IMG/VR virus record: IMGVR_UViG_3300036771_000090
Location: 1 to 64,000 of that record
DNA length: 64,000 nt
DNA from: a virus
Strand: one strand, 5' to 3'
Shown here in pieces: positions 6,540 through 29,683 of this stretch. The first letter of the stretch is position 1, and each line of letters begins with the position of its first letter. Under the pieces are notes generated by a model. The model saw only the letters and a list, made by a program, of their open reading frames with translations, was not told the DNA's origin and searched no databases. The translations under genes and the position numbers were made by a program.

Positions 6540-7031
6540 ATGGCTGAACAGCCGATCAAAGCGATCCAGACCCGGTATGCGGGGTGCCACTTCCGCAGCC
6601 GCCTGGAGGCGCGCTGGGCCGTGTTCTGGGACTCCCTGGACTGGCCCTGGGAGTACGAGCCGCAGGGGTTCGACCTGCCGCACGGACCCTACCTCCCGGA
6701 CTTCTCGGTGACCCCCTACCCGGAGCGGTCCCAGGGGCCGGTCTGGTTCGAAGTCAAGCCGCCCGGCGCGTCCGACGACATGCGCTGGCCGGAGCTGGCG
6801 GTGATGACCGGAATCATGATCATCACAGCGAAGGGGATGCACCGGCGCGGGGACAACTGCTCCGTGGAGCACACCGCGGAGGTCTTCACGCCCGAAGGCC
6901 ACCGGGCTGGCGTGGACCTGTGGGCGCACGTCGGGGGACAGCACTGGGACGCGGCCAGCTCCGCGCGGTTCGAGCACGGGGAGCGGCCGGCACAGCACCG
7001 CACGCGCCGCCGGGGCCGGGGGAAGCGGTGA
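6540..7031 (+). CDS. PD-(D/E)XK-like nuclease
   Basis: FRSRLEARWAVF..L...WEYEPQGF...YLPDF...WFEVKP. Confidence 0.75.
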   Translation: MAEQPIKAIQTRYAGCHFRSRLEARWAVFWDSLDWPWEYEPQGFDLPHGPYLPDFSVTPYPERSQGPVWFEVKPPGASDDMRWPELAVMTGIMIITAKGMHRRGDNCSVEHTAEVFTPEGHRAGVDLWAHVGGQHWDAASSARFEHGERPAQHRTRRRGRGKR

Positions 7032-7033
7032 CG

Positions 7034-10000
7034 ATGACCGGAGAGCAGACCGGCGCCGCTCCGATGGGGGCGGCGGACCTGTCCCAGGGGCACGCCGAAG
7101 AGCTGGAGTCGAGCTGCATCGACGCGGAGCACGTGGCCGCCCGCGGGTACCGGACACTGTTCGGCACCGACGCGGACCGGCTGGAGCTGAAGAACCTGCG
7201 CATCCCGCGCTTCATGTGGCGGGACGACAGCGCCTTTCCCGGGCTGCTGATCCCGGAGTACCGGGTCACCGGGGAGCTGATCGGCTACCAGTTCAAGCCC
7301 GCGGTGCCGCAACGGGGGTCGGACAAGAAGTTCGTGAAGTACGCCTCCCAGGCCGGCACCCCGAACCACCTGGACGTCCCGCCGCTGGTGGCGGACAAGG
7401 TCCGGGACCCGGACAGCCCGCTGTGGATCACCGAAGGGATCAAGAAGGCCGACTCCCTGGCGTCCCGGAGCCGCGCGGTGGTGACGCTGACCGGCGTCTT
7501 CAACTGGCGGAGCAAGCTGGGCACGCTGGGGGACTGGGAGGACATCCCGCTCCAGGGCCGCTCCGTGGTGATCTGCTTCGATGCGGACGCCCGGGAGAAG
7601 CGCACGGTCCTTCTGGCCATGCGCCGGCTGGGCACCTGGCTGGAGTCCAAGCGCGCCAGGGACATCCGGTACCTGATCGTCCCGTCAGAGGTGAACGGCA
7701 CGCCGGTCAAGGGCGTGGACGACTACTTCTGTGCCGGCGGCACGCTGGCGGACCTGCGGGACCACGCGCTCCGGGAGCTGCCGTCCGACGGGGCCCAGGA
7801 CGCGGCCTTCTCGGACGCGGTGCTGGCCGACACGGTGTGCAGTGAGGAGCTGGAGGGGCAGTTCAAATGGTCGGCCGGCATGGGCTGGATGACCTGGACG
7901 GGGAAATTCTGGCGCAAGGCGACGGACGCCACGGTGACCGAAGCCGTACGGCTGTGGGCCCTGACCCAGTTCGAACGGACCATCGACAAGCAGAAGGCCG
8001 ACCCGAACCGGGACATGCGCTCCCAGATGGAGGGGTGGCGGAGCGCGCTGTCCAAAGGGAAGCTGACCGCGCTGGTGACCCTGTCGCGCGGCATCCTGGA
8101 GTGCTCCCCGGACGATTTCGATTCGGACCCCGACCTGTTCAACTGCCCCAACGGCATCCTGGACCTGCGCACCGGCGTACTGGTGCCGCACGACCCGGAC
8201 CGCCTGATGACCCGGATAGCCGGCGTGGACTACATCAAGGGTGCGGAGCACCCCGACTGGTTCACGGCGCTCCAGGCGCTGCCGGAATCGGTCCGGGAGT
8301 GGTTTCAGCTCCGCATCGGCCAGGCCATCACCGGTCACCTGACCCCCGACGATCTGGCCGTCATCTGCCAGGGGGGCGGGGAGAACGGGAAGTCCACGGT
8401 CTTCAACGCGCTGATCACCGCGGCGGGCCGGTATCACATCATGGTGGCGGACCGGGCGATGCTCGGGAACGCCTCCGACAACCACCCCACGGAGATGATG
8501 GACTTCATGGGGGCCCGGTTCGCCATGCTGGAGGAGACCCCCGAATCCCGGCGCCTGGACACCAACCGGCTGAAGAAGCTGGTGGGCACCCGGGAGATCA
8601 CCGCACGCGGGATGCGCCAGGACGACGTCACGTTCGAGACGACCCACTCCCTGTTCGTCAACACCAATTTCCGCCCGACCGTGGATGAGACCGACCACGG
8701 GACCTGGCGCCGTCTGGCGCTGCTGAAGTTCCCGTACACGTACCGCAAGTCCCAGTCGCTGGTGAAGGGCCCCAACGACCGTCTGGGGGACCCTTCGCTC
8801 CGCCAGCGGGTGGAGACTCCGCCGGTGATGGAGGCGGCGCTGGCCTGGGCCGTGGAAGGCGCGCAGCGCTGGTACGGCATGGACCGGATCATGCCGGAGC
8901 TGCCGGAGCTGGTGGTGGCCGACACCCTGGAGTGGCGCAAGGAGTCGGACCCGATCCTCCGGTTCATTGACGACACGCTGGCCTTCGACCGGTCCAGCCA
9001 CATCCACACGGTGGACCTGATGGAGGTCTTCACCAAGTTCATGGACGACCGCAAGTCCCGGCAGTGGTCGGAGAAGACCTTCGGGAGCCGGTTCGGCGGT
9101 CACGATCTGTGTGCACAGAACGGCGTGGAGAAGAGGAAGATCAGGAAGACCGAAGGAAGATCAACACTACAGACCGGAGTCGTGGCGGGAGCCACGTACA
9201 ACGCCTGGATGGGGGTCAGATTTCAGGGTCCGGAGGACGGAAAAGTGTCCGATCCGGGTCCGGAAGACAATTCTGGACCGGAAGATCCTTTCGGAGAACC
9301 GCAGGTAAATGGGGGTGAGCAAGATCATGTTCCCGGTGTTCCCGGTACGGCGGTTAACGCTCAAATGCCCTACGCATGGGAGCTTAACCCGGGAACCGGG
9401 AACACCGGGAACAGACACGAACAGGTAACGAATGTGAAGGAGATGTGCGTGTCTGATATGCCCGAATCCGACCACGCTCCGCAGGTGACTTTCTTCGACC
9501 TGGAAGGCGCCAGCGCGGACGAATTGTTCACGTACGGTGACGGTTTCGTGAGGTTGCCCGGCATGGCCACCGGTGACGGGGACGTGCGCACCGGCGTGCC
9601 GGTCCGGGAGCTGGTCCGGGCCCTGGAGAACGGTCCGTCCGCCGGGCACAACATCATGGGCTTCGACGGCCTGGCCCTGGCCTTCCACCACGGGATGGAC
9701 TGGGAGAAGTTCTGCGAAGGCGCGCAGGACACGGAGATCAACGCCCGGCTGGCCGATCCCCCGCGCTCCAAGGAGTCCGGGCGGACGGAGGACCGGTACG
9801 ACCTGGACCACACCGCGGCGAAGCTGGGGGTGGCCGGGAAGACCGACTCCGCCAAGCGGCTGAAGGACAAGTACGGCGGCTACGACAAGATCCCGCTGGA
9901 CGACCCGGAGTACCACGCCTACCTGAAGGGCGACGTGGAGGCCACCCGCCAGGTGGCCGCGCTCCTGCCGACCACGGAGTACGGCAAGCGGGAGCACTAC

Positions 10001-11203
10001 CTGGCGTCGCTGGCCGGCCGGATGACCCTGAACGGCTTCCGGGTGGACGTCCCCCTGCTCCGCCGGCGCCTGGTGGAGGGACAGGCCAAAAAGCGCGCCG
10101 CCATGGAGGAACTGCGGGAGAGCACCGGGCTTCCGCTGGGCCGGGAGGTGATGCGGGGCCGCGGGAAGGCGAAGACGCCCGTCTTCGAGCCGTTCGACTC
10201 CCCGTTCAACACCACGGAGGGCAAGCAGTGGCTGGCGGACCTGTGGAGCCAGTACGGCGTGAAGCGGCCCCCCAGGACGGCCAAGGGAGCGCTGTCCACG
10301 GCCGCGGAGGCGCTGAAGGAGGTCTCCGGCCACCCGCGGTGCCCGGAGGAGCTGCGACGGACCCTGGACCTGATGGGGATCATCACCACCACCCGGACCG
10401 TCTACCAGACCGCTGCCACCTACCTCACCCCGGAGGGACGCGTCCACCCGTCGGTGTCCATGCGCCAGGCGTCCGGGCGGTGGTCGGTCACCAACCCCGG
10501 TCTGACCGTCTTCGGCAAGCGCGGCGGCCGGCACGTGGAGCGGGACATCTTCATCCCGGAGCCGGGCCACGTGGTCATCACGTGCGACCTGAGCCAGGTG
10601 GACATGCGCGCGGTGGCCGGGCACTGCCAGGACCAGGCGTACATGGCGCTGTTCGAGCCGGGCAAGGACGTCCACCAGGCGATTGCCGATCAACTGGGCA
10701 TCGCCCGGCAGGACGCGAAGCAGTTCGGCCACGGGTACAACTACGGCCTTCAGCTCAAAGGCGCCATCGAGCGCGGCATGGACCCGGACCTGGCCAAGAC
10801 GTTCTATGAGGGCATGGCCACCCAGTTCCCGGAGAAGAACGCCTGGACGGAGCGGGTACGGGCCGACGGCCGCCAGGGGCTGCTCCTGGACAACGGCTTC
10901 GGCCGGATGATGCGCTGCGACCCGGACCACGCCTTCACGGTCGCACCGGCCCTGATGGGCCAGGGAGGTGCCCGGGACATCACCTGTGAGGTGCTGATCC
11001 GCCTCATGGCCCGGCATCCTGAGTACCGGGCCTACCTGCGCGCCTACGTCCACGACGAATTCGTCTTCTCGGTCCCGGAGGACCAGGCGGAGGAGATCGG
11101 CGCGGAGATCACCGACGCGTTCACCTGGGAGTGGCGCGGGGTCCCGATCCTGTGCGACCTGGCCGGGCCCGCGGAGAGCTGGGGATCGGCGTCCGCGAAG
11201 TAG
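7034..11203 (+). CDS. Fused DNA primase (DUF3854/toprim-like) - D5/P4-type SF3 helicase - family A DNA polymerase
   Basis: WITEGIKKADS/ICFDAD/KGVDD (toprim); NCPNGILDL, GGENGKST, HGTWRRL (D5-type helicase); FFDLE, GHNIMGFD (exonuclease), SGRWS, CDLSQVDMR, AKQFGHGYNYG, YVHDEFVF (PolA); no stop between domains. Confidence 0.9.
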   Translation: MTGEQTGAAPMGAADLSQGHAEELESSCIDAEHVAARGYRTLFGTDADRLELKNLRIPRFMWRDDSAFPGLLIPEYRVTGELIGYQFKPAVPQRGSDKKFVKYASQAGTPNHLDVPPLVADKVRDPDSPLWITEGIKKADSLASRSRAVVTLTGVFNWRSKLGTLGDWEDIPLQGRSVVICFDADAREKRTVLLAMRRLGTWLESKRARDIRYLIVPSEVNGTPVKGVDDYFCAGGTLADLRDHALRELPSDGAQDAAFSDAVLADTVCSEELEGQFKWSAGMGWMTWTGKFWRKATDATVTEAVRLWALTQFERTIDKQKADPNRDMRSQMEGWRSALSKGKLTALVTLSRGILECSPDDFDSDPDLFNCPNGILDLRTGVLVPHDPDRLMTRIAGVDYIKGAEHPDWFTALQALPESVREWFQLRIGQAITGHLTPDDLAVICQGGGENGKSTVFNALITAAGRYHIMVADRAMLGNASDNHPTEMMDFMGARFAMLEETPESRRLDTNRLKKLVGTREITARGMRQDDVTFETTHSLFVNTNFRPTVDETDHGTWRRLALLKFPYTYRKSQSLVKGPNDRLGDPSLRQRVETPPVMEAALAWAVEGAQRWYGMDRIMPELPELVVADTLEWRKESDPILRFIDDTLAFDRSSHIHTVDLMEVFTKFMDDRKSRQWSEKTFGSRFGGHDLCAQNGVEKRKIRKTEGRSTLQTGVVAGATYNAWMGVRFQGPEDGKVSDPGPEDNSGPEDPFGEPQVNGGEQDHVPGVPGTAVNAQMPYAWELNPGTGNTGNRHEQVTNVKEMCVSDMPESDHAPQVTFFDLEGASADELFTYGDGFVRLPGMATGDGDVRTGVPVRELVRALENGPSAGHNIMGFDGLALAFHHGMDWEKFCEGAQDTEINARLADPPRSKESGRTEDRYDLDHTAAKLGVAGKTDSAKRLKDKYGGYDKIPLDDPEYHAYLKGDVEATRQVAALLPTTEYGKREHYLASLAGRMTLNGFRVDVPLLRRRLVEGQAKKRAAMEELRESTGLPLGREVMRGRGKAKTPVFEPFDSPFNTTEGKQWLADLWSQYGVKRPPRTAKGALSTAAEALKEVSGHPRCPEELRRTLDLMGIITTTRTVYQTAATYLTPEGRVHPSVSMRQASGRWSVTNPGLTVFGKRGGRHVERDIFIPEPGHVVITCDLSQVDMRAVAGHCQDQAYMALFEPGKDVHQAIADQLGIARQDAKQFGHGYNYGLQLKGAIERGMDPDLAKTFYEGMATQFPEKNAWTERVRADGRQGLLLDNGFGRMMRCDPDHAFTVAPALMGQGGARDITCEVLIRLMARHPEYRAYLRAYVHDEFVFSVPEDQAEEIGAEITDAFTWEWRGVPILCDLAGPAESWGSASAK
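9328..9413. repeat. 19-bp perfect inverted repeat with AT-richer spacer inside helicase-polymerase linker (candidate origin)
   Basis: TGTTCCCGGTGTTCCCGGT (9328-9346) / ACCGGGAACACCGGGAACA (9395-9413). Confidence 0.8.
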
Positions 11204-22049: not shown

Positions 22050-22116
22050 CCGGCCATCCAGTTCTCCGGCTTCCGGCCGCTATCATCAGCCGCAGGTGAC
22101 AGCGGGAGGCGCGCGC

Positions 22117-23913
22117 ATGGGATGGAACCCTTTCGGCCGGGCCCGGCCTCCGGCTGATCCTCCGCGGGAGCCGGAGGCGCTGACCGCAGCGGCCCAGGTG
22201 GTCAGGAAGCCGGAGTCCCAGTACCTCCAGTACACCCAGAACTGGCAGAACGAAGCCTGGGACTTCTACGATTCGTGCGGCGAAGCCAACTACGGGATCA
22301 CCTGGCTGGCCAACATGCTGAGCCAGGTCCGCCTCCGTGCCGCCCGGATGGCCCCGGGTCTGGACGAACCGGAGATCCTGTCCACCGGCATCCCGGCGGA
22401 GATCATCGGCGCACTGGCCGGCGGTGTGGGCGGACAGTCCCAGATCATGCGCTCCCTGGCCACCCAGCTCTCCGTCCCCGGGGACAGCTACCTGGTGGGT
22501 GAACAGGCCGGAGTGGCGGAGAACTGGACCGTGCGCAGCGTGGACGAAGTCCGCGTCCAGAACCGCAAGTACCAGGTGGTGGCCGACCGAACTCCGACGA
22601 TTGAGTGGCGCGACCTTCCGCCGGATTCGGTGCCGGTGCGGATCTGGCGTCCGCACATGCGCTGGAACTCCGTCGCGGATTCCCCGATGCGCTCCGCGCT
22701 GCCGATCCTGCGAGAGCTGGAACTGGTCAACCGGCACATCACCGCGCAGTACCTGAGCCGGCTGGCTTCGGCCGGCCTGCTTATCCTCCCGGACGAAGTG
22801 GACTTCCCTGTCCGGGAGGAATTCGCGGAGGCGGAAGACCCCTTCGTGGCGGAGTGGATCGAGATCGGCGCACAGGCCATCGCCAACCCGGGTACGGCGT
22901 CCGCGGTGATCCCGATTCCGATCCGCGTTCCCGGTGAGTACGTGGACAAGATCAAGTTTCTGGACTTCACCCTGAAGATCGATGAAAAGATCATCGAAAA
23001 GCGGGACAGCGCGATCAACCGCCTGGCCACCAAGCTGGACATCCCGACCGAAGTCCTGACCGGCATGGGCAAGGTCAACCACTGGACGGCCTGGCAGCTC
23101 GATGAAGGCAGCCTGAAAACCCACATCGCTCCCCTGGTGGAGACCATCTGCTACTCCCTGACCACGGGGTACTACCAGCCGCGCCTGAAGGCCAGCGGCG
23201 TGGAGGATGCAGAGCGGTACGTGGTCTGGTACGACATGTCCGAACTGGCGCTCCGCCCGGACAACTCCACGAACGCGATGGCCGCGTACGACCGGTTCGA
23301 GATCAGCGGGGAGGCGCTGCGGCGGGAGACCGGCTTCGGGGAGGACGACAAGCCGTCGGACGAAGAGCTGCGCGTCATGGCGCTGAAATCGATCATCCGG
23401 GAAGCTCCGGCGTCCGCCAACGCCCCGGAGGCGGTGGACGCGCTGGTGGGTCAGGACGTCCTGTCCACAGCCACCGCGGAGACCGGCTCCCCGGCGTCCA
23501 CCGGGACCGGCGGGGGTACTTCTCCGGGCGACCAGAGCACCGCTGGTCCGGGCGGAGCGGCAGACCCCGGCACACCGGGGACGAAGGACGCGCCGGCCGA
23601 TACCCCGCCGGTGCGCGCCGGTGCGTACTCCCTGGTCCAGATGAAGGCGCTGCACGCTGTCCGCTTCAGCGTGACGCGACCGGCCCAGCTCTACCATCCG
23701 CCGCTGTGCGCGACGCACGCGTACTCCTGCCCGTTCACCCATGCCGCGCTGGGCCGGAGACTGCCCAACCTCTCCAGCGGGACGTACGAATGCCGTCTGG
23801 ACCTGTTCGGGCAGTTGATCGTCGGGCGCCCGGCGCCAGAGATCGACACGTCCGACTGGATTCCGACCATGGGGACACCTGTGGCCCGGCCGAAGGAGCG
23901 CATCCGTGCCTGA
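22117..23913 (+). CDS. Portal protein (cluster B-like) with C-terminal extension
   Basis: WQNEAWDFYD, RIWRPH...ADSP, SRLASAGLLILP, NHWTAWQ; position between terL and head genes. Confidence 0.88.
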   Translation: MGWNPFGRARPPADPPREPEALTAAAQVVRKPESQYLQYTQNWQNEAWDFYDSCGEANYGITWLANMLSQVRLRAARMAPGLDEPEILSTGIPAEIIGALAGGVGGQSQIMRSLATQLSVPGDSYLVGEQAGVAENWTVRSVDEVRVQNRKYQVVADRTPTIEWRDLPPDSVPVRIWRPHMRWNSVADSPMRSALPILRELELVNRHITAQYLSRLASAGLLILPDEVDFPVREEFAEAEDPFVAEWIEIGAQAIANPGTASAVIPIPIRVPGEYVDKIKFLDFTLKIDEKIIEKRDSAINRLATKLDIPTEVLTGMGKVNHWTAWQLDEGSLKTHIAPLVETICYSLTTGYYQPRLKASGVEDAERYVVWYDMSELALRPDNSTNAMAAYDRFEISGEALRRETGFGEDDKPSDEELRVMALKSIIREAPASANAPEAVDALVGQDVLSTATAETGSPASTGTGGGTSPGDQSTAGPGGAADPGTPGTKDAPADTPPVRAGAYSLVQMKALHAVRFSVTRPAQLYHPPLCATHAYSCPFTHAALGRRLPNLSSGTYECRLDLFGQLIVGRPAPEIDTSDWIPTMGTPVARPKERIRA

Positions 23914-26900
23914 CCACCGGCACTTCGTCCCGGCCGCGGTGACCGCGGACGCCGGCGGGGACCACCTGTCCGGCTGCATGATCGCGCTCATGCCCACGGA
24001 GGACGACGCGCAGCGCCTGGCCGTCGAAGGCGGGGAAGCGGCTGCCGATCTCCACTGCACCCTGTTCTACGTCGGGCCCGACGCTTCGCAGTGGGACGAC
24101 CACCAGCGCGCGGAGCTGGTGGACATCCTGCGCAGCATGGTCCAGGAGTCCCCGTTCGGCAGCGCCAACGTACTGACCGCGAACATCTTCGGCGCCGCGC
24201 ACTGGAACGCGGGCAGCGACGCTCCTTCCTGGGTGTGGAACGTCGGGGACCTGCCCGGTGACGATCCGGTGGACGATGACGGGGACGGCCTGGACGACTT
24301 CCACCGGATGGCGGTCGAAGCGCTGGAGTCGGGACATGAACACCCTGATCCGCCTGTCCAGCACACTCCGTGGGTAGCCCATATCTGTGCCCAGTACACC
24401 GATGATCCCGCGCTCCTGGAGACCATGGAGCAGCGCCTGGGCCCGGTCACCTTCGACCGGCTCCGGATCAGCTTCGGTGACCAGGACACCGACATCCCGC
24501 TGAATGTGGACCAGGTGCTCACCGCGGCCGGGCCGCTCCGGCGCAAGCCGAAGGAGTTCGAGCAGACCGCCACGGTGGACTTCGCGCTCATGGACGCCTC
24601 CTGGAAGGCGGCCGTGGACAAGGTGTACGTGGCATGGATGGCCGTGCTCAGTGCCCAGCGCGCGGAGCTGTACCGCCAGATCCAGTCCGCTGTGGACGCC
24701 GGGCGCCTGGGGGATCTGGCCACCATGGACGTGAGCACGGAGCAGGCGGTGACCGTGCTCTCCAGCCACATGGCCGCTTTCGCCAGGACGTGCGGGCTCC
24801 AGCAGCAGCACGAAGCCGACCGCCAGGGCGTACACGTCGAATCGTGGTCCCTGTCCGGTGACGCGGTGACCGCCTCCGCCGTAGGCGACTGGATCAGCCG
24901 GATCGGTTCCTTCGCCCGGGTCACCGCCGGAGCACTGGCGTCCCGGCTGGTGTCCGCGGCGTCCCGGCGCTCCGTCGTGCTGGGCCAGACCGACGAACGC
25001 GGCAGCGAAGTGGCGCGCCAGGTGGATACCGACCTGTCCGACCATCCCCAGAGCTACGTCCGGCAGGAGCTGGCCGCAGCCATGACCGCGGCCCAGAATT
25101 ACGGCCGTCTCGCCGTGCTCACCGCGGCGCCGCCCGGCCGCTACTACGCGTCGGAGATGCTGGACAAGCAGACGTGCAAGCCGTGCCGGGAGATCGACGG
25201 AACCCAGTTCACCGGCCTGGACGCCGCGGATGCCGCCTACCCGGCCGGCGGCTATGTCGAATGCGCAGGGGGATCATCTTGCCGTGGCACCCTGGTCACG
25301 GTCTGGGACGAAGGAGAGGTGGCTTCCGCCGCTCCGGAGGGAGGTGCCGCCGTGGCGGCAACCGAAGAACTGGGTGGCAAGCCCACCAAGGGGACGAAGA
25401 AGGACAAGCGGCTGAAGGAGAACGACACCGCGGCCGTGGACGCGGAGCACTTCGGCCCGGTCAGCGGGCCCGTTTCGGACAAGCCCTGGGACGGAGCGGC
25501 GTCCCGCTTCACGGATGAGCAGTACCAGCGCGCCGCAGCGGCGTGCGATTCCGGGGACAGCACGGTCAAGGAGCGGTGCTTCCTTCCGCACCACGAACCG
25601 GACGGCACCGTCAGCAAGGCCGGCGTCCACGCGGCGGCCCAGCGCGTCAGCTCCCTGTCCGGCCACGATCCCGCGGCCGTGGCGAAGGCGAAGGCGCACC
25701 TGCGCTCCCACTACAGCCAGCTTGGTGAAGACGTCCCGGACTCCCTGAAGGCCACCCTGGGGGACGCGGTGGAGCTGGCCATGGCGCCGGTGGAGTCGGT
25801 GGAGAACTTCGACGTGCCCGCGGAAGGCGCCACCGGGACGACCAGCCCGTGGCGCGGACCGCTGGCGGTGGAGAGCAAGGTCACCGGAGACGGCCGGGAG
25901 TTCGCGGCCGGGTCGCTGACCTGGCGGGACCTGCCGCTCCCGCTGCGCTGGAACAAGGAGGACAGCCACGGCGGGGAGCCGCGCACCGTGGCCGTCAACG
26001 TCGGCCGGATCGACAACATCTGGCGTGAGGGTGACCTGATCATGGGGGAAGGGGTGCTGGACCTGAGCACCCCCGACGGCCAGACCGTCTTCAACAAGAT
26101 CAGCGGCCAGTTCCTCCGCGGCGTGTCGGTGGATGCCGATTCCATCAAGGACTCCGACGTCGAAGTCATCATGCCGGAGGGGACCGGGGACGACGCGGAC
26201 GAAGACCCGCTGATGGCCCTGTTCGCCATGCCGGAGAAGGTGATCTACCACGCCGGCCGGATCTCCGCGGCCACCCTGTGCGACATCCCCGCGTTCGCGG
26301 AAGCGTACATCGCGCTCCTGGACCAGGACGGAGCCGTCACCGCCGGCGGCATCCCGGCCGGTGTGAGCGGCCATGTCCTGATCCGCGGTGTCCCCCGCCG
26401 CACCATCGACGGCCTGGTGGCCGCCGGTCCGCTGGCCACCGACGGCTGGACACCCCCGGCGGAGTGGTTCTCCAACCCGCGCCTGTCCCTGCCCACCGGC
26501 ATCACCGTCACCGACGACGGCCGGGTGTACGGCCACGCGGCCACCTGGGGGAGCTGTCACATCGGGCAGGCGGACGTCTGTGTCCAGCCGCCCCGGGAGG
26601 AGAACCACCCGTACTACATGACCGGAGAGGTGAAGACCCGGGAAGGCGGCCGGGTCTCCGTCGGCCAGATCACCGTGGGGACCGGCCACGCGCCGCTCAA
26701 CGCCGGGGCGGTCCCCGCGACCGAGCACTACGACCACACTGGCCACGCGGTGGCGGACGTCGCGGTGGGCAACGACGATCACGGGATCTGGGTGGCCGGC
26801 GCGATCCGGCCCGGTGCGGACCCGGAGCTGGTCCACGCGCTCCGCGCCGCCGGCCAGGTCTCCGGGGACTGGCGCCGGATCGGCAGCCAGCTCCGGCTGG

Positions 26901-27118
26901 TCGGCCTCCTGGCCGTCAACGTCCCCGGCTTCCCGGTGCCGAAGATGGCCACCCGGATCACCGCCTCCGGCGCGGAAGGCGCCAACGTCCAGATGGCTCT
27001 GGTGGCCGCCGGCCGGCCGGCCTTCGCCCACGGTCTCAGCGACGAAGAGACCACCCAGGCAGCGTTCCGTATCGTCATGGACGCGCTGTTCCACCGCGTG
27101 CACAGGGGAGGTGAATGA
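23906..27118 (+). CDS. Head-maturation polyprotein: 2H phosphoesterase + MuF-like + capsid maturation protease
   Basis: LHCTL...HICAQY (2H); CKPC...CAGGSSCRGTL (MuF-like); TGDGREF...HGG...VGRID...GVSVD (protease-like). Confidence 0.75.
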   Translation: MPDHRHFVPAAVTADAGGDHLSGCMIALMPTEDDAQRLAVEGGEAAADLHCTLFYVGPDASQWDDHQRAELVDILRSMVQESPFGSANVLTANIFGAAHWNAGSDAPSWVWNVGDLPGDDPVDDDGDGLDDFHRMAVEALESGHEHPDPPVQHTPWVAHICAQYTDDPALLETMEQRLGPVTFDRLRISFGDQDTDIPLNVDQVLTAAGPLRRKPKEFEQTATVDFALMDASWKAAVDKVYVAWMAVLSAQRAELYRQIQSAVDAGRLGDLATMDVSTEQAVTVLSSHMAAFARTCGLQQQHEADRQGVHVESWSLSGDAVTASAVGDWISRIGSFARVTAGALASRLVSAASRRSVVLGQTDERGSEVARQVDTDLSDHPQSYVRQELAAAMTAAQNYGRLAVLTAAPPGRYYASEMLDKQTCKPCREIDGTQFTGLDAADAAYPAGGYVECAGGSSCRGTLVTVWDEGEVASAAPEGGAAVAATEELGGKPTKGTKKDKRLKENDTAAVDAEHFGPVSGPVSDKPWDGAASRFTDEQYQRAAAACDSGDSTVKERCFLPHHEPDGTVSKAGVHAAAQRVSSLSGHDPAAVAKAKAHLRSHYSQLGEDVPDSLKATLGDAVELAMAPVESVENFDVPAEGATGTTSPWRGPLAVESKVTGDGREFAAGSLTWRDLPLPLRWNKEDSHGGEPRTVAVNVGRIDNIWREGDLIMGEGVLDLSTPDGQTVFNKISGQFLRGVSVDADSIKDSDVEVIMPEGTGDDADEDPLMALFAMPEKVIYHAGRISAATLCDIPAFAEAYIALLDQDGAVTAGGIPAGVSGHVLIRGVPRRTIDGLVAAGPLATDGWTPPAEWFSNPRLSLPTGITVTDDGRVYGHAATWGSCHIGQADVCVQPPREENHPYYMTGEVKTREGGRVSVGQITVGTGHAPLNAGAVPATEHYDHTGHAVADVAVGNDDHGIWVAGAIRPGADPELVHALRAAGQVSGDWRRIGSQLRLVGLLAVNVPGFPVPKMATRITASGAEGANVQMALVAAGRPAFAHGLSDEETTQAAFRIVMDALFHRVHRGGE

Positions 27119-27232: not shown

Positions 27233-27286
27233 ATGTGCGGATGCAACCAGCCCGCTCCCCCGCCCCCGCCGGCCCCCGGCCAGTGA
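27233..27286 (+). CDS. 17-aa microprotein MCGCNQPAPPPPPAPGQ
   Basis: Strong GGGAGGTG RBS; ends just before terminator. Confidence 0.4.
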   Translation: MCGCNQPAPPPPPAPGQ

Positions 27287-27290
27287 GACC

Positions 27291-27323
27291 CGGAACCCCC
27301 GCCCCCGCCCGGCGGGGGTTCCG
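27291..27323. terminator. Bidirectional terminator-like hairpin
   Basis: CGGAACCCCCGCC / GGCGGGGGTTCCG between convergent genes. Confidence 0.75.
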
Positions 27324-27327
27324 CCGT

Positions 27328-27768
27328 TCACGGGGTCCGGTTCAGCAGCTCCTTCAGGTCGTCCATGTCGTTGCTGGCCTTCAGGGAGTCGGTCAGGAAA
27401 CGGTCCGAACCGGAGTCGATGTCCCCGGCCACGGTCAGCGCGTCCGTCATCACCCGGTCGTACCCCGTGTCGATGTCCGGGTGGCCGGCCGGCGCCGGGA
27501 CCAGCAAGCCGGCTTTCGCGGCGCTGCGCAGCTCCGCTACCTCCGGCCGGCCGTGCAGTACCGCTCCCGACGCGGATGCGTCACCCAGCGATGTGTACGC
27601 GGCGGACAGTGCGTCCACCGGGATGAAGGCTTCGGTGTACCAGCTCTCCAGGGACTGCATGGAGGCGGACGGAGCTGCGGACCGGTCCGGAGTGCTGCCG
27701 GAAGATCCCCCGCATCCGGCCAGTACGGCGGCCAGCAGAGGAACGGCCAGGAATTGCATGGATCGCAT
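27328..27768 (-). CDS. Lipoprotein (possible superinfection exclusion/moron)
   Basis: Lipobox LAGC; AAAGG RBS; only antisense gene in head operon. Confidence 0.75.
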   Translation of the reverse strand: MRSMQFLAVPLLAAVLAGCGGSSGSTPDRSAAPSASMQSLESWYTEAFIPVDALSAAYTSLGDASASGAVLHGRPEVAELRSAAKAGLLVPAPAGHPDIDTGYDRVMTDALTVAGDIDSGSDRFLTDSLKASNDMDDLKELLNRTP

Positions 27769-27889
27769 GGACTAATCCTTTCCTTTTACCGGTCCACAAT
27801 AGTCTCTGACCTTTGGAAATGCGGTTATCCGGCTGCTACCTTGACGGCAAACATCATCCCGCCTTCGCCTCTCAGCCGGAGGAACTGCC

Positions 27890-29683
27890 GTGCCCGAACA
27901 GCTCGAAACCCACACTCTCTACCCCGCCCCGGCTGATCTGACCACGATCCCCGACGCGGAACTGTCCGAAATGGAGACCGTGTTCACCGCGGAGTTCGAC
28001 CGCGTGTACGGCCTCCAGGACTACACCGAAGACCATGTTCAGTACGGCCTGGGACTCCGGGAGAACCTGGACCGGGTCAAGTCGGAGCTGGCCGCGCGTG
28101 ACGTCCGCGCCAAGAGTGCGGCGGCTGCGGCCAAGCTGAAGGCGGACCGCCAGATGGCGGAGCTGAAGGGCGCGATCCACGGACCGGCCGAAGGAACCCC
28201 GGAGGCTGCTCAGGTAGCCGTCGTGGACCAGGAGAAGGCCAACGCCCGGCTGGCCGAAGTCGTGGCCGCCGCGGTGACCGAAGGCTTCGTGGGACTGCTC
28301 GGTGGCGAAGCCGGCAAGGAGATCGTGAAGGGCGCGCGTGGCGGGGCCGTCGTGGCGTCGCTCGGTGCCACCGCCCGGCTGGCCCCGAAGCCGCCGGCCG
28401 GCGTCCAGCAGCGGCTGGCCATCACCGCGTCCGGTTCCGGCCAGGAGCTGCCGAACCTGGCGGCGCTGGCCGCGGAGTTCACCCGGATGGCCAACGGCAT
28501 CCCGATCTCCCGGAGCGGCAAGAACGCCCCCCAGCACCCCGTGGCCCGTATCCGGAACGAGTTCGCGCACACCGTGGACGACCGGATGCGCCCGGCGGAG
28601 ATCGAAGAGATCTGGCGGGAGATGGTCAACCGCGACAGCTCCGACGCGCTGGTGGCCGGCGGTGGCTGGTGCGCCCCGTCAGAGATCATGTACAACTTCT
28701 TCAACATCGCGGACATGGACGGAGCGGTGGACCTGCCGACCGTCGGTGTCACCCGTGGTGGCATCCGGTACCCGGTCTCCCCCGCCATCGGGGACGTGTT
28801 CTTCCAGAACGCGGGCAGCAACCCGGCGTCCGGCTTCGGCTCCTTCGCCTTCCCGTTCAGCAACGCCTCCGACCCGTGGCTGTGGACGGAGACGGACGAC
28901 ATCTCCACCGTCACCGGCTCCGTGAACAAGCCGACCCTGCGCGTTCCCTGTGCCAGCTTCGGGGAGCAGCGGCTGGAGGCGTACGGCCTCACGGTCACCG
29001 CGGGCAACCTGACCGACAGCGCCTGGCCCGAAGCCACCCAGAACTTCATCCGGCTCCTGCGGATGGCCTACGCGCACGCGATCAACGCCCGGCTGCTGTC
29101 CCTCATGGACACCGCCTCCGGCGGCGCGACGACCATCGGCGCCATCACCACCGACCCCGCCGCACCGCGCATCATGAACGCGGTGGAGCTGGCGGCCGTG
29201 GACTACCGGGCGAAGTACGCCATGAACACGGACGCGGTGCTGGAAGTCGTCCTGCCGTACTGGGTCAAGAGCGTCATCCGTTCCGACCTGGCGTACAAGA
29301 CGGGCATCGACTCCACGGAGCTGCTGGCCGTCATCGACAGCCAGATCAATGCGTTCTTCACCGCGCGCAAGGTCCGCGTCCAGTGGGTCAACGACTACCA
29401 GGTGCGCGGAGCCAACCAGCCCGGCTCCAGCTCCAACCTGACCACCTGGCCGACCACCGTCAACTTCATGGTGTACGCGGCCGGCACCTTCCTCCACGGC
29501 ACCGGGCTCCAGCTCGACCTGGGAGTGGTCCGGGACTCCGTGCTCAACGCGGAGAACGACTTCACCGCGGCATGGGCCGAAGAGGCGCACCTGATCGCCA
29601 TGGTGGGCCACGCCAGCCGGAAGTACACCGTGGCCTTCCAGGTCAACGGCGCCAGCGGTGGCGGCACCACGGCACGCGTCTGA
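27890..29683 (+). CDS. Major capsid (hexamer) protein with N-terminal scaffold-like region
   Basis: DALVAGGGWCAPSEIMY...LPTVGVTRGG, characteristic of Rosebush/cluster B-type MCP; GGAGG RBS. Confidence 0.85.
   Translation: MPEQLETHTLYPAPADLTTIPDAELSEMETVFTAEFDRVYGLQDYTEDHVQYGLGLRENLDRVKSELAARDVRAKSAAAAAKLKADRQMAELKGAIHGPAEGTPEAAQVAVVDQEKANARLAEVVAAAVTEGFVGLLGGEAGKEIVKGARGGAVVASLGATARLAPKPPAGVQQRLAITASGSGQELPNLAALAAEFTRMANGIPISRSGKNAPQHPVARIRNEFAHTVDDRMRPAEIEEIWREMVNRDSSDALVAGGGWCAPSEIMYNFFNIADMDGAVDLPTVGVTRGGIRYPVSPAIGDVFFQNAGSNPASGFGSFAFPFSNASDPWLWTETDDISTVTGSVNKPTLRVPCASFGEQRLEAYGLTVTAGNLTDSAWPEATQNFIRLLRMAYAHAINARLLSLMDTASGGATTIGAITTDPAAPRIMNAVELAAVDYRAKYAMNTDAVLEVVLPYWVKSVIRSDLAYKTGIDSTELLAVIDSQINAFFTARKVRVQWVNDYQVRGANQPGSSSNLTTWPTTVNFMVYAAGTFLHGTGLQLDLGVVRDSVLNAENDFTAAWAEEAHLIAMVGHASRKYTVAFQVNGASGGGTTARV

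Follow-up and report, generated by a model that had tools for sequence, protein, structure and literature searches.

A LigT-like 2H phosphoesterase domain joined to MuF-like and prohead protease modules in the head-assembly polyprotein of an actinobacterial phage

The stretch of DNA analyzed here (the window) comprises 64,000 nucleotides, positions 1 to 64,000 of the IMG/VR virus record IMGVR_UViG_3300036771_000090, and has a GC content of about 68%. It is part of a complete 77.8-kb record with direct terminal repeats, whose source is a complete actinobacterial phage, a Streptomyces-type siphophage. The head module of this phage contains an open reading frame (ORF; 23906-27118, on the plus strand, as are its parts and the portal and MCP motifs given below), the 1070-residue product of which is a head-assembly polyprotein. 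From the N- to the C-terminus it is composed of a 2H phosphoesterase domain, a MuF-like module, a variable linker, a protease with the gp21/assemblin fold, a second conserved domain, and a C-terminal helix. The gene adjoins the portal gene on its upstream side (22096-23913, 605 residues; phrog_776, E 4e-128) and is followed, after a gap of about 770 nucleotides, by the gene of the major capsid protein (MCP; 597 residues; phrog_777, E 5e-109), with the terminase upstream and the tape-measure gene downstream of the head genes. Its GTG start lies 8 nucleotides ahead of the portal stop, so that the two genes overlap. Because a Shine-Dalgarno (SD) sequence, GAAGGAG, is found 7 nucleotides upstream of this GTG, and because close relatives have a Met at the same place (MPAHDHF, aligned with VPDHRHF here), the public gene call, which starts at M25, is probably 24 residues short.

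The N-terminal domain (residues 22-200; 23969-24505) is a LigT-like 2H phosphoesterase domain. A sequence-only reading of this locus had pointed to two His motifs of the 2H type within the first ~200 residues, and both are indeed present and, across 121 close homologues, vary little or not at all. In the first, LHCTL (H50-C-T52; 24053-24061), both H50 and T52 are invariant, and the motif aligns with HLT of the Thermus 2'-5' RNA ligase 1iuh. In the second, AHICA (H159-I-C161; 24380-24388), where a Cys replaces the Thr or Ser, H159 and C161 are each retained in 120 of the 121 homologues, the alignment being with the PHIT motif of 1iuh. The proposal that AHICA is a variant of HxT/S also finds support in a broader sample, since among 150 cluster representatives the second motif is HxC in 86, HxT in 52, HxA in 6 and HxS in 1, and comparison with stand-alone relatives shows it switching between H-x-C and H-x-T. 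Because HxC is so frequent relative to HxT among these representatives, the Cys is, as judged from the alignments, a common lineage state of the classical Thr motif. Further invariant or near-invariant residues in the close homologues are H99-W-N, W109-V-W, H153-x-P-W, and F183-D-R.

Residues 1-210 have no match in Pfam or NCBIfam, the family models PF13563 and PF02834 included, and a search of the Protein Data Bank (PDB) with the whole polyprotein sequence returned nothing but one chance match to GADD45. In PHROGs, residues 9-200 fall into phrog_2659, annotated as 'RNA ligase' (E 7e-25). The family profile matches LigT-type structures weakly (E 0.005-0.01), with both His motifs aligned to those of 1iuh, and one relative (P0114), 54% identical over the 2H domain, reaches 28.2 bits for PF13563 (2_5_RNA_ligase2) against a cut-off of 27.

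The 2H fold that the sequence-only reading had anticipated is recovered by structure prediction. The AlphaFold (AF2) model of the domain, with a predicted local distance difference test score (pLDDT) of 84.3 and a core spanning residues 22-200, is a two-lobed α+β 2H fold in which the catalytic His residues are intact, and a Foldseek search with it retrieves 2H enzymes only (E 4e-6). By VIA, the best match is 1iuh (Z 15.2, root-mean-square deviation 3.4, 160 of 183 residues aligned), followed closely by the cyclic phosphodiesterase (CPDase) of Deinococcus (drCPDase, 5h7e; Z 14.7), E. coli LigT (13.7), and a plant CPDase (13.6), and by further 2H proteins such as Usb1 (13.8), AKAP18 (12.9), rotavirus VP3 (12.4), and a phosphodiesterase of phage BCSR5 (11.2; structures 9q2g and 9q2y, for which our literature search found no paper). 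In total, 63 chains were found at Z of at least 8, and the matches listed with Z >10 are all known 2H proteins, bar one trypanosomatid mitoribosomal protein. As modeled, the domain resembles the LigT/CPDase-type enzymes (Z 13.7-15.2) more than it does Acb1 (Z 11.1), and therefore the structure assigns no substrate.

Acb1 and rotavirus VP3 are also 2H enzymes of viruses, and both destroy nucleotide immune signals; VP3 is packaged in the virion and has its 2H domain as a fusion. Both are structurally farther from the domain described here (Z 11.1 and 12.4) than the LigT-type enzyme (15.2), and neither has sequence similarity to it. The 2H domain might nevertheless be an Acb1-type nuclease directed against the cyclic oligonucleotide-based antiphage signaling system (CBASS) and specific for 3'3'-cyclic di- and trinucleotides. 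It belongs to the same superfamily, Acb1 of phage FBB1 (7t26) is aligned over 130 of its 137 residues, and Acb1 models in BFVD match the domain with E ~1e-4. However, Acb1 ranks under LigT, CPDase, Usb1, AKAP18, and VP3 (Z 12-15), and no match is found at the sequence level. Moreover, the present domain is larger (~180 residues, versus 140-150 in Acb1), carries other conserved accessory residues (HWN, WVW, and HxPW), and is a late, fused part of a 1070-residue head protein rather than the product of a small stand-alone gene of ~150 residues. We regard such a narrow assignment as quite improbable.

The C-terminal half of the polyprotein contains the protease modules. The model of residues 640-1070 has a pLDDT of 73, and VIA aligns its first part, residues 640-820, with T4 gp21 (5jbl; Z 10.1, 122 residues aligned) and with the varicella protease (1vzv; Z 9.6). 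Herpes proteases are also retrieved by Foldseek with the protease region (E 1.5e-3), there is a weak match to Peptidase_S77, and a PDB sequence search with this half gave no match. At the level of the model, a prohead maturation protease fold is thus confirmed, and we delimit this domain, protease domain 1, to residues 643-815 (25832-26350). Its candidate catalytic residues, H688 and S741, show no variation among 33 sequences and are located in the expected strand pattern. A second conserved, β-rich domain follows at residues 850-1010 (26453-26935), with the PHROGs label 'head maturation protease' (phrog_18402) and with Peptidase_S80, Peptidase_S77, and Mu gpI clusters as its ESM Atlas neighbors (0.92-0.95). 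Invariant in it are H941, D943, and S986, plus a group formed by H877, C884, H885, and C892 that looks like a metal site. Annotation and language-model features make this domain protease-like, and we treat it as a candidate second protease. As an hhalign comparison of the two domains was not significant, a tandem duplication is not shown. Disordered linkers (pLDDT <50) are predicted at residues ~820-846 and 1006-1044, and the protein ends in a helix (residues 1046-1065; 27041-27100; positions 407-426 of the model), by analogy a possible capsid-binding tail.

Between the 2H domain and the protease lies the MuF-like module (residues ~215-470; 24548-25315), with a Cys cluster (CKPC...C...C) at its end. 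PF04233 matches residues 366-440 with 20.5 bits (E 8.5e-4), short of its 29.6-bit cut-off, a split relative (P0029) scores 22.7 bits for MuF, and TIGR01641 (E 0.003) and phrog_595 (E 8e-6) lend weak support. As regards the MuF-like and protease-like domains proposed in the sequence-only reading, the protease fold is therefore borne out, the MuF assignment stays under threshold, and the protease-like domains are two instead of one. After the module comes a variable linker with an insert (residues ~484-642; 25355-25831; gap fraction 0.5-0.6), which is missing from about half of the homologues and matches no family. For its main part, residues 505-642 (25418-25831), neither Pfam nor NCBIfam gave a match and the ESM Atlas gave nothing usable; this segment displays the pattern W-DG..SRF...C.LPHH..DG...GVHAAAQR. 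At the same junction, other homologues have a different small Cys-containing insert, PWAVVKDxDGxVxGCH, which recurs C-terminally in some of the stand-alone 2H proteins.

The junction ahead of the insert holds a candidate internal start (25336-25354), in which a strong SD sequence, GGAGGGAGG (25336-25344), is placed 7 nucleotides from an in-frame GTG (V482). Initiation at this codon would yield a protease-only product of 589 residues. An SD sequence with an in-frame start is found at the same junction in 17 of 40 related loci, and where split relatives encode the protease in a gene of its own, that protein begins at the position of V482. From the sequences, V482 may plausibly give rise to a nested protease-only product.

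Short motifs recur along the polyprotein, several of them at module junctions and in linkers, and the sequence-only reading had interpreted them as cleavage sites of the protease. Searching for [LVI][TV]A[ASGD], we find nine copies in the polyprotein, whereas 1.6 are expected and none of 2000 shuffles reaches nine; the MCP has five (0.96 expected) and the portal three (0.6 expected). Conservation was scored on 98 full-length polyprotein homologues plus 80 related IMG/VR loci (n=67 for the MCP and n=55 for the portal), and it singles out some of the copies. Directly after the 2H domain, in a segment with pLDDT <60, V-L-T-A-A-G (residues 204-209; 24515-24532) is a putative site conserved in 70/98, and a TA(A/S)G..RR junction is likewise present in split relatives that combine 2H and MuF, with or without an ADP-ribosyltransferase (ART), and in orf10 of phage GMA2. 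A-V-T-A-S-A (residues 320-325; 24863-24880), a putative site within the MuF-like region, is conserved in 88/98. At the end of protease domain 1, where the adjoining linker is disordered, A-V-T-A-G-G (residues 810-815; 26333-26350) is conserved in 92/98, mostly as VVAG, and A-L-V-A-A-G (residues 1031-1036; 26996-27013), in a disordered segment ~35 residues before the C-terminus, is a further putative site (90/98). A junction that had been overlooked, E-V-A-S-A (residues 471-475; 25316-25330), follows the last MuF strand; there, a putative site of the T-A-S-A type ([TVS]A[SAG][AG]) is found in 75/98 homologues, against a background of 12%. The recurrence that had been noticed is therefore real, but not all of the proposed sites withstand comparison: AVTAD (12-15; 41/98), LVAAG (837-840; 23/98), and ITASG (1018-1021; 14/98) are poorly conserved. 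Two further copies, one at 339-342 and VLTAAP (404-408), the latter inside the MuF-like module, are not conserved.

The presence of the motif in the portal and the MCP, also put forward previously, is supported by the comparison. In the portal, A-L-T-A-A-A (portal residues 28-33; 22177-22194; consensus (A/S)-L-T-A-A-A) is conserved in 49/55 and separates a variable, Pro-rich leader from the conserved core. In the MCP, A-I-T-A-S-G (MCP residues 177-182; 28418-28435) is conserved in 67/67 as A-(I/V)-T-A-(S/A) at 177-181 and marks the point at which a variable, helix-like N-terminal part passes into the conserved core; the likeness to other actinophage MCPs starts only at around residues 152-258, and a PDB sequence search with the MCP found no match. 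A similar arrangement is seen in distant relatives of the 2H domain, 35 of 130 of which have the strict motif no more than 30 residues upstream of the 2H fold (background 4.8%), beginning in 28 of those 35 at 10-13 residues ahead of the first 2H strand. In GMA2, GVTAAA precedes the 2H domain by 17 residues, and ITAAGPKR at 126-133 resembles LTAAGPLRR of the present protein. This pattern of short conserved islands at flexible junctions of three head proteins fits maturation-protease sites and supports a putative (T/V)-A↓(S/A/G) cleavage code shared by the portal, the MCP, and the polyprotein. The predicted P1 Ala, with Ser, Ala, or Gly at P1', recalls the consensus of the herpes assemblin, (V/L)-x-A↓S.

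Data from phage GMA2 link this family to the virion. Mass spectrometry (MS) of purified GMA2 virions identified orf9 (portal), orf10, and orf16 (MCP) (Dyson et al. 2015; PMC4524720, Table S5). GMA2 orf10 is the founding member of phrog_2659 and has its 2H domain at residues 712-876, with the motifs HLTL and HITA. When the orf10 peptides were mapped by script (those of orf9 and orf16 were placed by eye), one of them fell at residue 825, covering the second His motif. Because this virion peptide maps inside the 2H domain of orf10, the homologous 2H domain is physically associated with GMA2 virions. In the case of Rosebush, the capsid paper reports MS coverage at the protein level only, and hence holds no cleavage information. 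We also note that GMA2 orf14 (8329-9060 in the GMA2 sequence), in the head module between orf10 and the MCP, has a VIP2-type ADP-ribosyltransferase motif in Table S1 of the same study (PMC4524720), an echo of the 2H-MuF-ART fusions found among relatives.

We propose, with about even confidence, that the polyprotein carries a capsid-loaded LigT-like 2H enzyme that is cut free, injected, and active on a nucleotide phosphodiester against host immunity. According to this model, the MuF and protease/C-terminal modules would bring the polyprotein into the procapsid. The protease would then cut after Ala at x-(T/V)-A↓(S/A/G), using the same code at the N-terminus of the portal and, in the MCP, where the N-terminal part meets the core, and would thereby free a 2H enzyme of ~20 kDa inside the head. 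At infection, this enzyme would leave with the DNA, in the manner of T4 Alt and the T4 internal proteins, and in the new cell it would hydrolyze a nucleotide phosphodiester and blunt host immunity, the likeliest substrates being a cyclic or 2'-5'-linked defense signal or a 2',3'-cyclic phosphate end.

Several observations weigh against this proposal. Structure cannot separate substrates, as Z values of 10-15 run throughout the 2H superfamily, and a Cys occupies the usual phosphate-binding Thr/Ser position of motif 2, so that catalytic competence is a prediction. Sequence scores are under the Pfam cut-offs for 2H, MuF, and protease alike, and for this phage cleavage, packaging, ejection, and substrate are steps that we infer. 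The motif was defined post hoc, in high-GC proteins rich in Ala and Thr, and its N-terminal copy (12-15), in addition to being weakly conserved, is only 3 residues from the start Met in many relatives.

Some of the evidence would suit a 2H domain that is packaged yet never cut free, remaining tethered to MuF at the portal, with the motifs as mere linker or structural features. A conserved copy in the MCP, LTAG 369-372 (65/67), lies inside the capsid fold, and conservation alone is therefore no proof of cleavage; the composition of the motif also resembles the overall Ala/Thr richness of these head proteins. The virion peptides of GMA2 cover orf10 residues 142-640 and 825, as if much of the protein stays, and three map to residues 15-69 of its MCP (orf16), so that the N-terminal part of the GMA2 MCP is not simply lost. 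On the other hand, copies of the motif are five to six times as frequent as in shuffled sequences, and they form conserved islands within otherwise variable, low-confidence linkers of three head proteins. Furthermore, the 18 orf10 peptides all lie beyond residue 141, and hence none is upstream of ITAAG (126-130), a distribution that would arise in ~4% of cases by chance if the peptides were evenly spread. Permanent tethering therefore seems to us unlikely, though still to be taken seriously.

The enzyme might instead act late in the producing cell, or heal RNA ends together with host ligases, repairing tRNA or mRNA after cleavage by anticodon nucleases or HEPN RNases of the host; the fusion would then serve late co-expression only, and not delivery. 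The nearest structures to the 2H domain are indeed LigT/CPDase-type RNA 2',3'-cyclic phosphodiesterases, SEA-PHAGES and PHROGs call its relatives 'RNA ligase', and the domain is a stand-alone gene in cluster C1 mycobacteriophages. However, direct ligation by RtcB would be impeded once a 2',3'-cyclic phosphate has been opened to a 2'-phosphate, and the homologous domain is detected in GMA2 virions. A search of the complete genome revealed no Rnl2-type RNA ligase, RtcB, or Tpt1/KptA, which makes a phage-encoded RNA repair pathway unlikely; PF09511 (Rnl1) gave no match either, but the control genomes were likewise without a match. In addition, Iyer et al. (2017; PMC5512222) never saw 2H versions of this type linked to ligases and argued likewise for these versions in general. 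We consider action in the producing cell or RNA healing improbable as the role of this domain.

The 2H family is large and modular. An exhaustive HMMER search yielded 969 cluster representatives, and the domain is present in the genomes of 386 isolated actinophages, in proteins annotated as 'RNA ligase', 'head maturation protease', or 'capsid maturation protease and MuF-like fusion protein'; the hosts include Mycobacterium, Gordonia, and Streptomyces. The fused form is present in 104 of 119 close homologues, the remainder being 2H-MuF or 2H-MuF-ADP-ribosyltransferase proteins of 600-800 residues (PF03496). Separate protease genes also exist in such split relatives, presumably as neighbors of the 2H-MuF(-ART) gene. 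In 150 representatives the 2H domain is internal (60), N-terminal (47), stand-alone (26), or C-terminal (17). Among isolated phages, TurkishDelight gp15 has the order MuF-2H-protease, Belphegor gp15 has protease domain 2 followed by 2H, and in GMA2 orf10 the 2H domain is C-terminal. This shifting position is as expected for a cargo domain that is shuffled among head proteins, as far as domain order can indicate. Stand-alone 2H proteins of 190-260 residues (P0165-P0263) possess N-terminal extensions of 40-90 residues that often open with LSDPxNVxF and show xTAAA ~11-13 residues ahead of the fold; such an extension may be a capsid-targeting propeptide.

A wider formulation, which we hold only tentatively and judge rather unlikely as a whole, would extend these features to a widespread actinophage lineage, defined by one x-(T/V)-A↓(S/A/G) code, a polyprotein with two protease-like domains, and an enzyme with an unusual H-x-C second motif that would destroy a host nucleotide immune signal outside the range of the known Acb1-type enzymes. 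The code would trim the portal and the MCP, dismantle the polyprotein, and free the capsid-loaded 2H enzyme for injection, and stand-alone relatives would enter the head via an N-terminal propeptide removed at the same code.

The association of a 2H domain with head proteins has precedents. In the 'polyvalent' effectors described by Iyer et al., 2H domains fused to MuF or portal proteins were proposed to be packaged, injected, and to degrade nucleotide signals of host defense (2017, PMC5512222; 2022, PMC9503650), so that both the 2H-MuF fusion and the idea of an injected counter-defense are already published, as a prediction. The sequence-only interpretation of a packaged phosphodiesterase released by the protease and delivered at infection, which our analysis supports in part, was thus largely anticipated. 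The domain pair, the late head-gene context, and the packaging logic (nucleotide signals or RNase) are the same in the polyprotein presented here. Unlike in those examples, its 2H domain is N-terminal and the maturation protease resides in the same polypeptide. Those papers, which like the present work offer predictions, describe no shared junction motif, cleavage code, or HxC variant. In MuF effector proteins a variable effector is found at the C-terminus of MuF, whereas here the enzyme is N-terminal and the protease is the C-terminal partner; split relatives differ in having an ADP-ribosyltransferase (PF03496) at the C-terminus of MuF.

Among isolated actinophages, the head proteins of TurkishDelight (gp15), BayC, Maih, GMA2 (orf10), Belphegor (gp15), and Kithara (gp23) have homologous 2H, MuF-like, and protease modules next to the portal and MCP, but they differ in domain order, show only 28-51% identity over the 2H domain, and the best phage match covers less than half of the protein. 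TurkishDelight, BayC, and Maih are Streptomyces phages, Kithara is a phage of Curtobacterium, and GMA2 one of Gordonia.

Beyond these phages, T4 offers a parallel to what we envisage here: its Alt and internal proteins IPI-III are prohead cargo that a gp21-fold protease trims at a short consensus and that stays in the head until it is ejected, together with the DNA, to counter host defense. The T4 cargo consists, however, of small proteins encoded separately, each with a capsid-targeting peptide at its N-terminus that gp21 removes at L/I-x-E, and not of a domain fused to MuF and protease with a predicted P1 Ala. The herpesvirus UL26/UL26.5 system shares the assemblin-fold protease and, by analogy, a similar specificity (predicted Ala at P1 and Ser/Ala at P1'). 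As in herpes UL26/UL26.5 and in lambda C/Nu3, there is a conserved site ~35 residues from the C-terminus, before a terminal helix, and a candidate nested start. Unlike the polyprotein, neither the herpes assemblin nor lambda C/Nu3 has enzyme cargo, and the likeness in specificity remains one of analogy.

Other features of the window deserve mention. In the gap between the polyprotein and MCP genes, an ORF of 233 residues (27235-27936) is Arg/Pro-rich and looks like a wrong-frame artifact of high-GC DNA, and we rejected it. On the minus strand of the same gap, an ORF of 146 residues (27328-27768) begins with a lipoprotein-type signal, LLAAVLAGCGG, and looks like a moron inserted in reverse orientation within the head module. 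Far upstream, the product of a single ORF of 1539 residues (6584-11203) matches both a primase/helicase-like family (phrog_1156) and a DNA polymerase family (phrog_17).

All together, the locus adds an example to an architecture that is already in the literature and does not represent a new kind of system. What this analysis adds is the comparative support, from sequence conservation, for a cleavage code common to the portal, the MCP, and the polyprotein, together with the location of the true protease fold, a second protease-like domain, a candidate internal start, and the link to virion MS data. If the 2H enzyme is injected, it would act ahead of any phage gene expression, a timing that counts against fast nucleotide-signaling defenses such as CBASS, Pycsar, type III CRISPR, and Thoeris. 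The family, with its 969 representatives and 386 isolated actinophages, includes phages that are easily grown, and the prediction of injection dates from 2017. If true, the cleavage code would define the specificity of a common, uncharacterized maturation protease of actinophages, and would help to annotate their mature capsid, portal, and cargo proteins.

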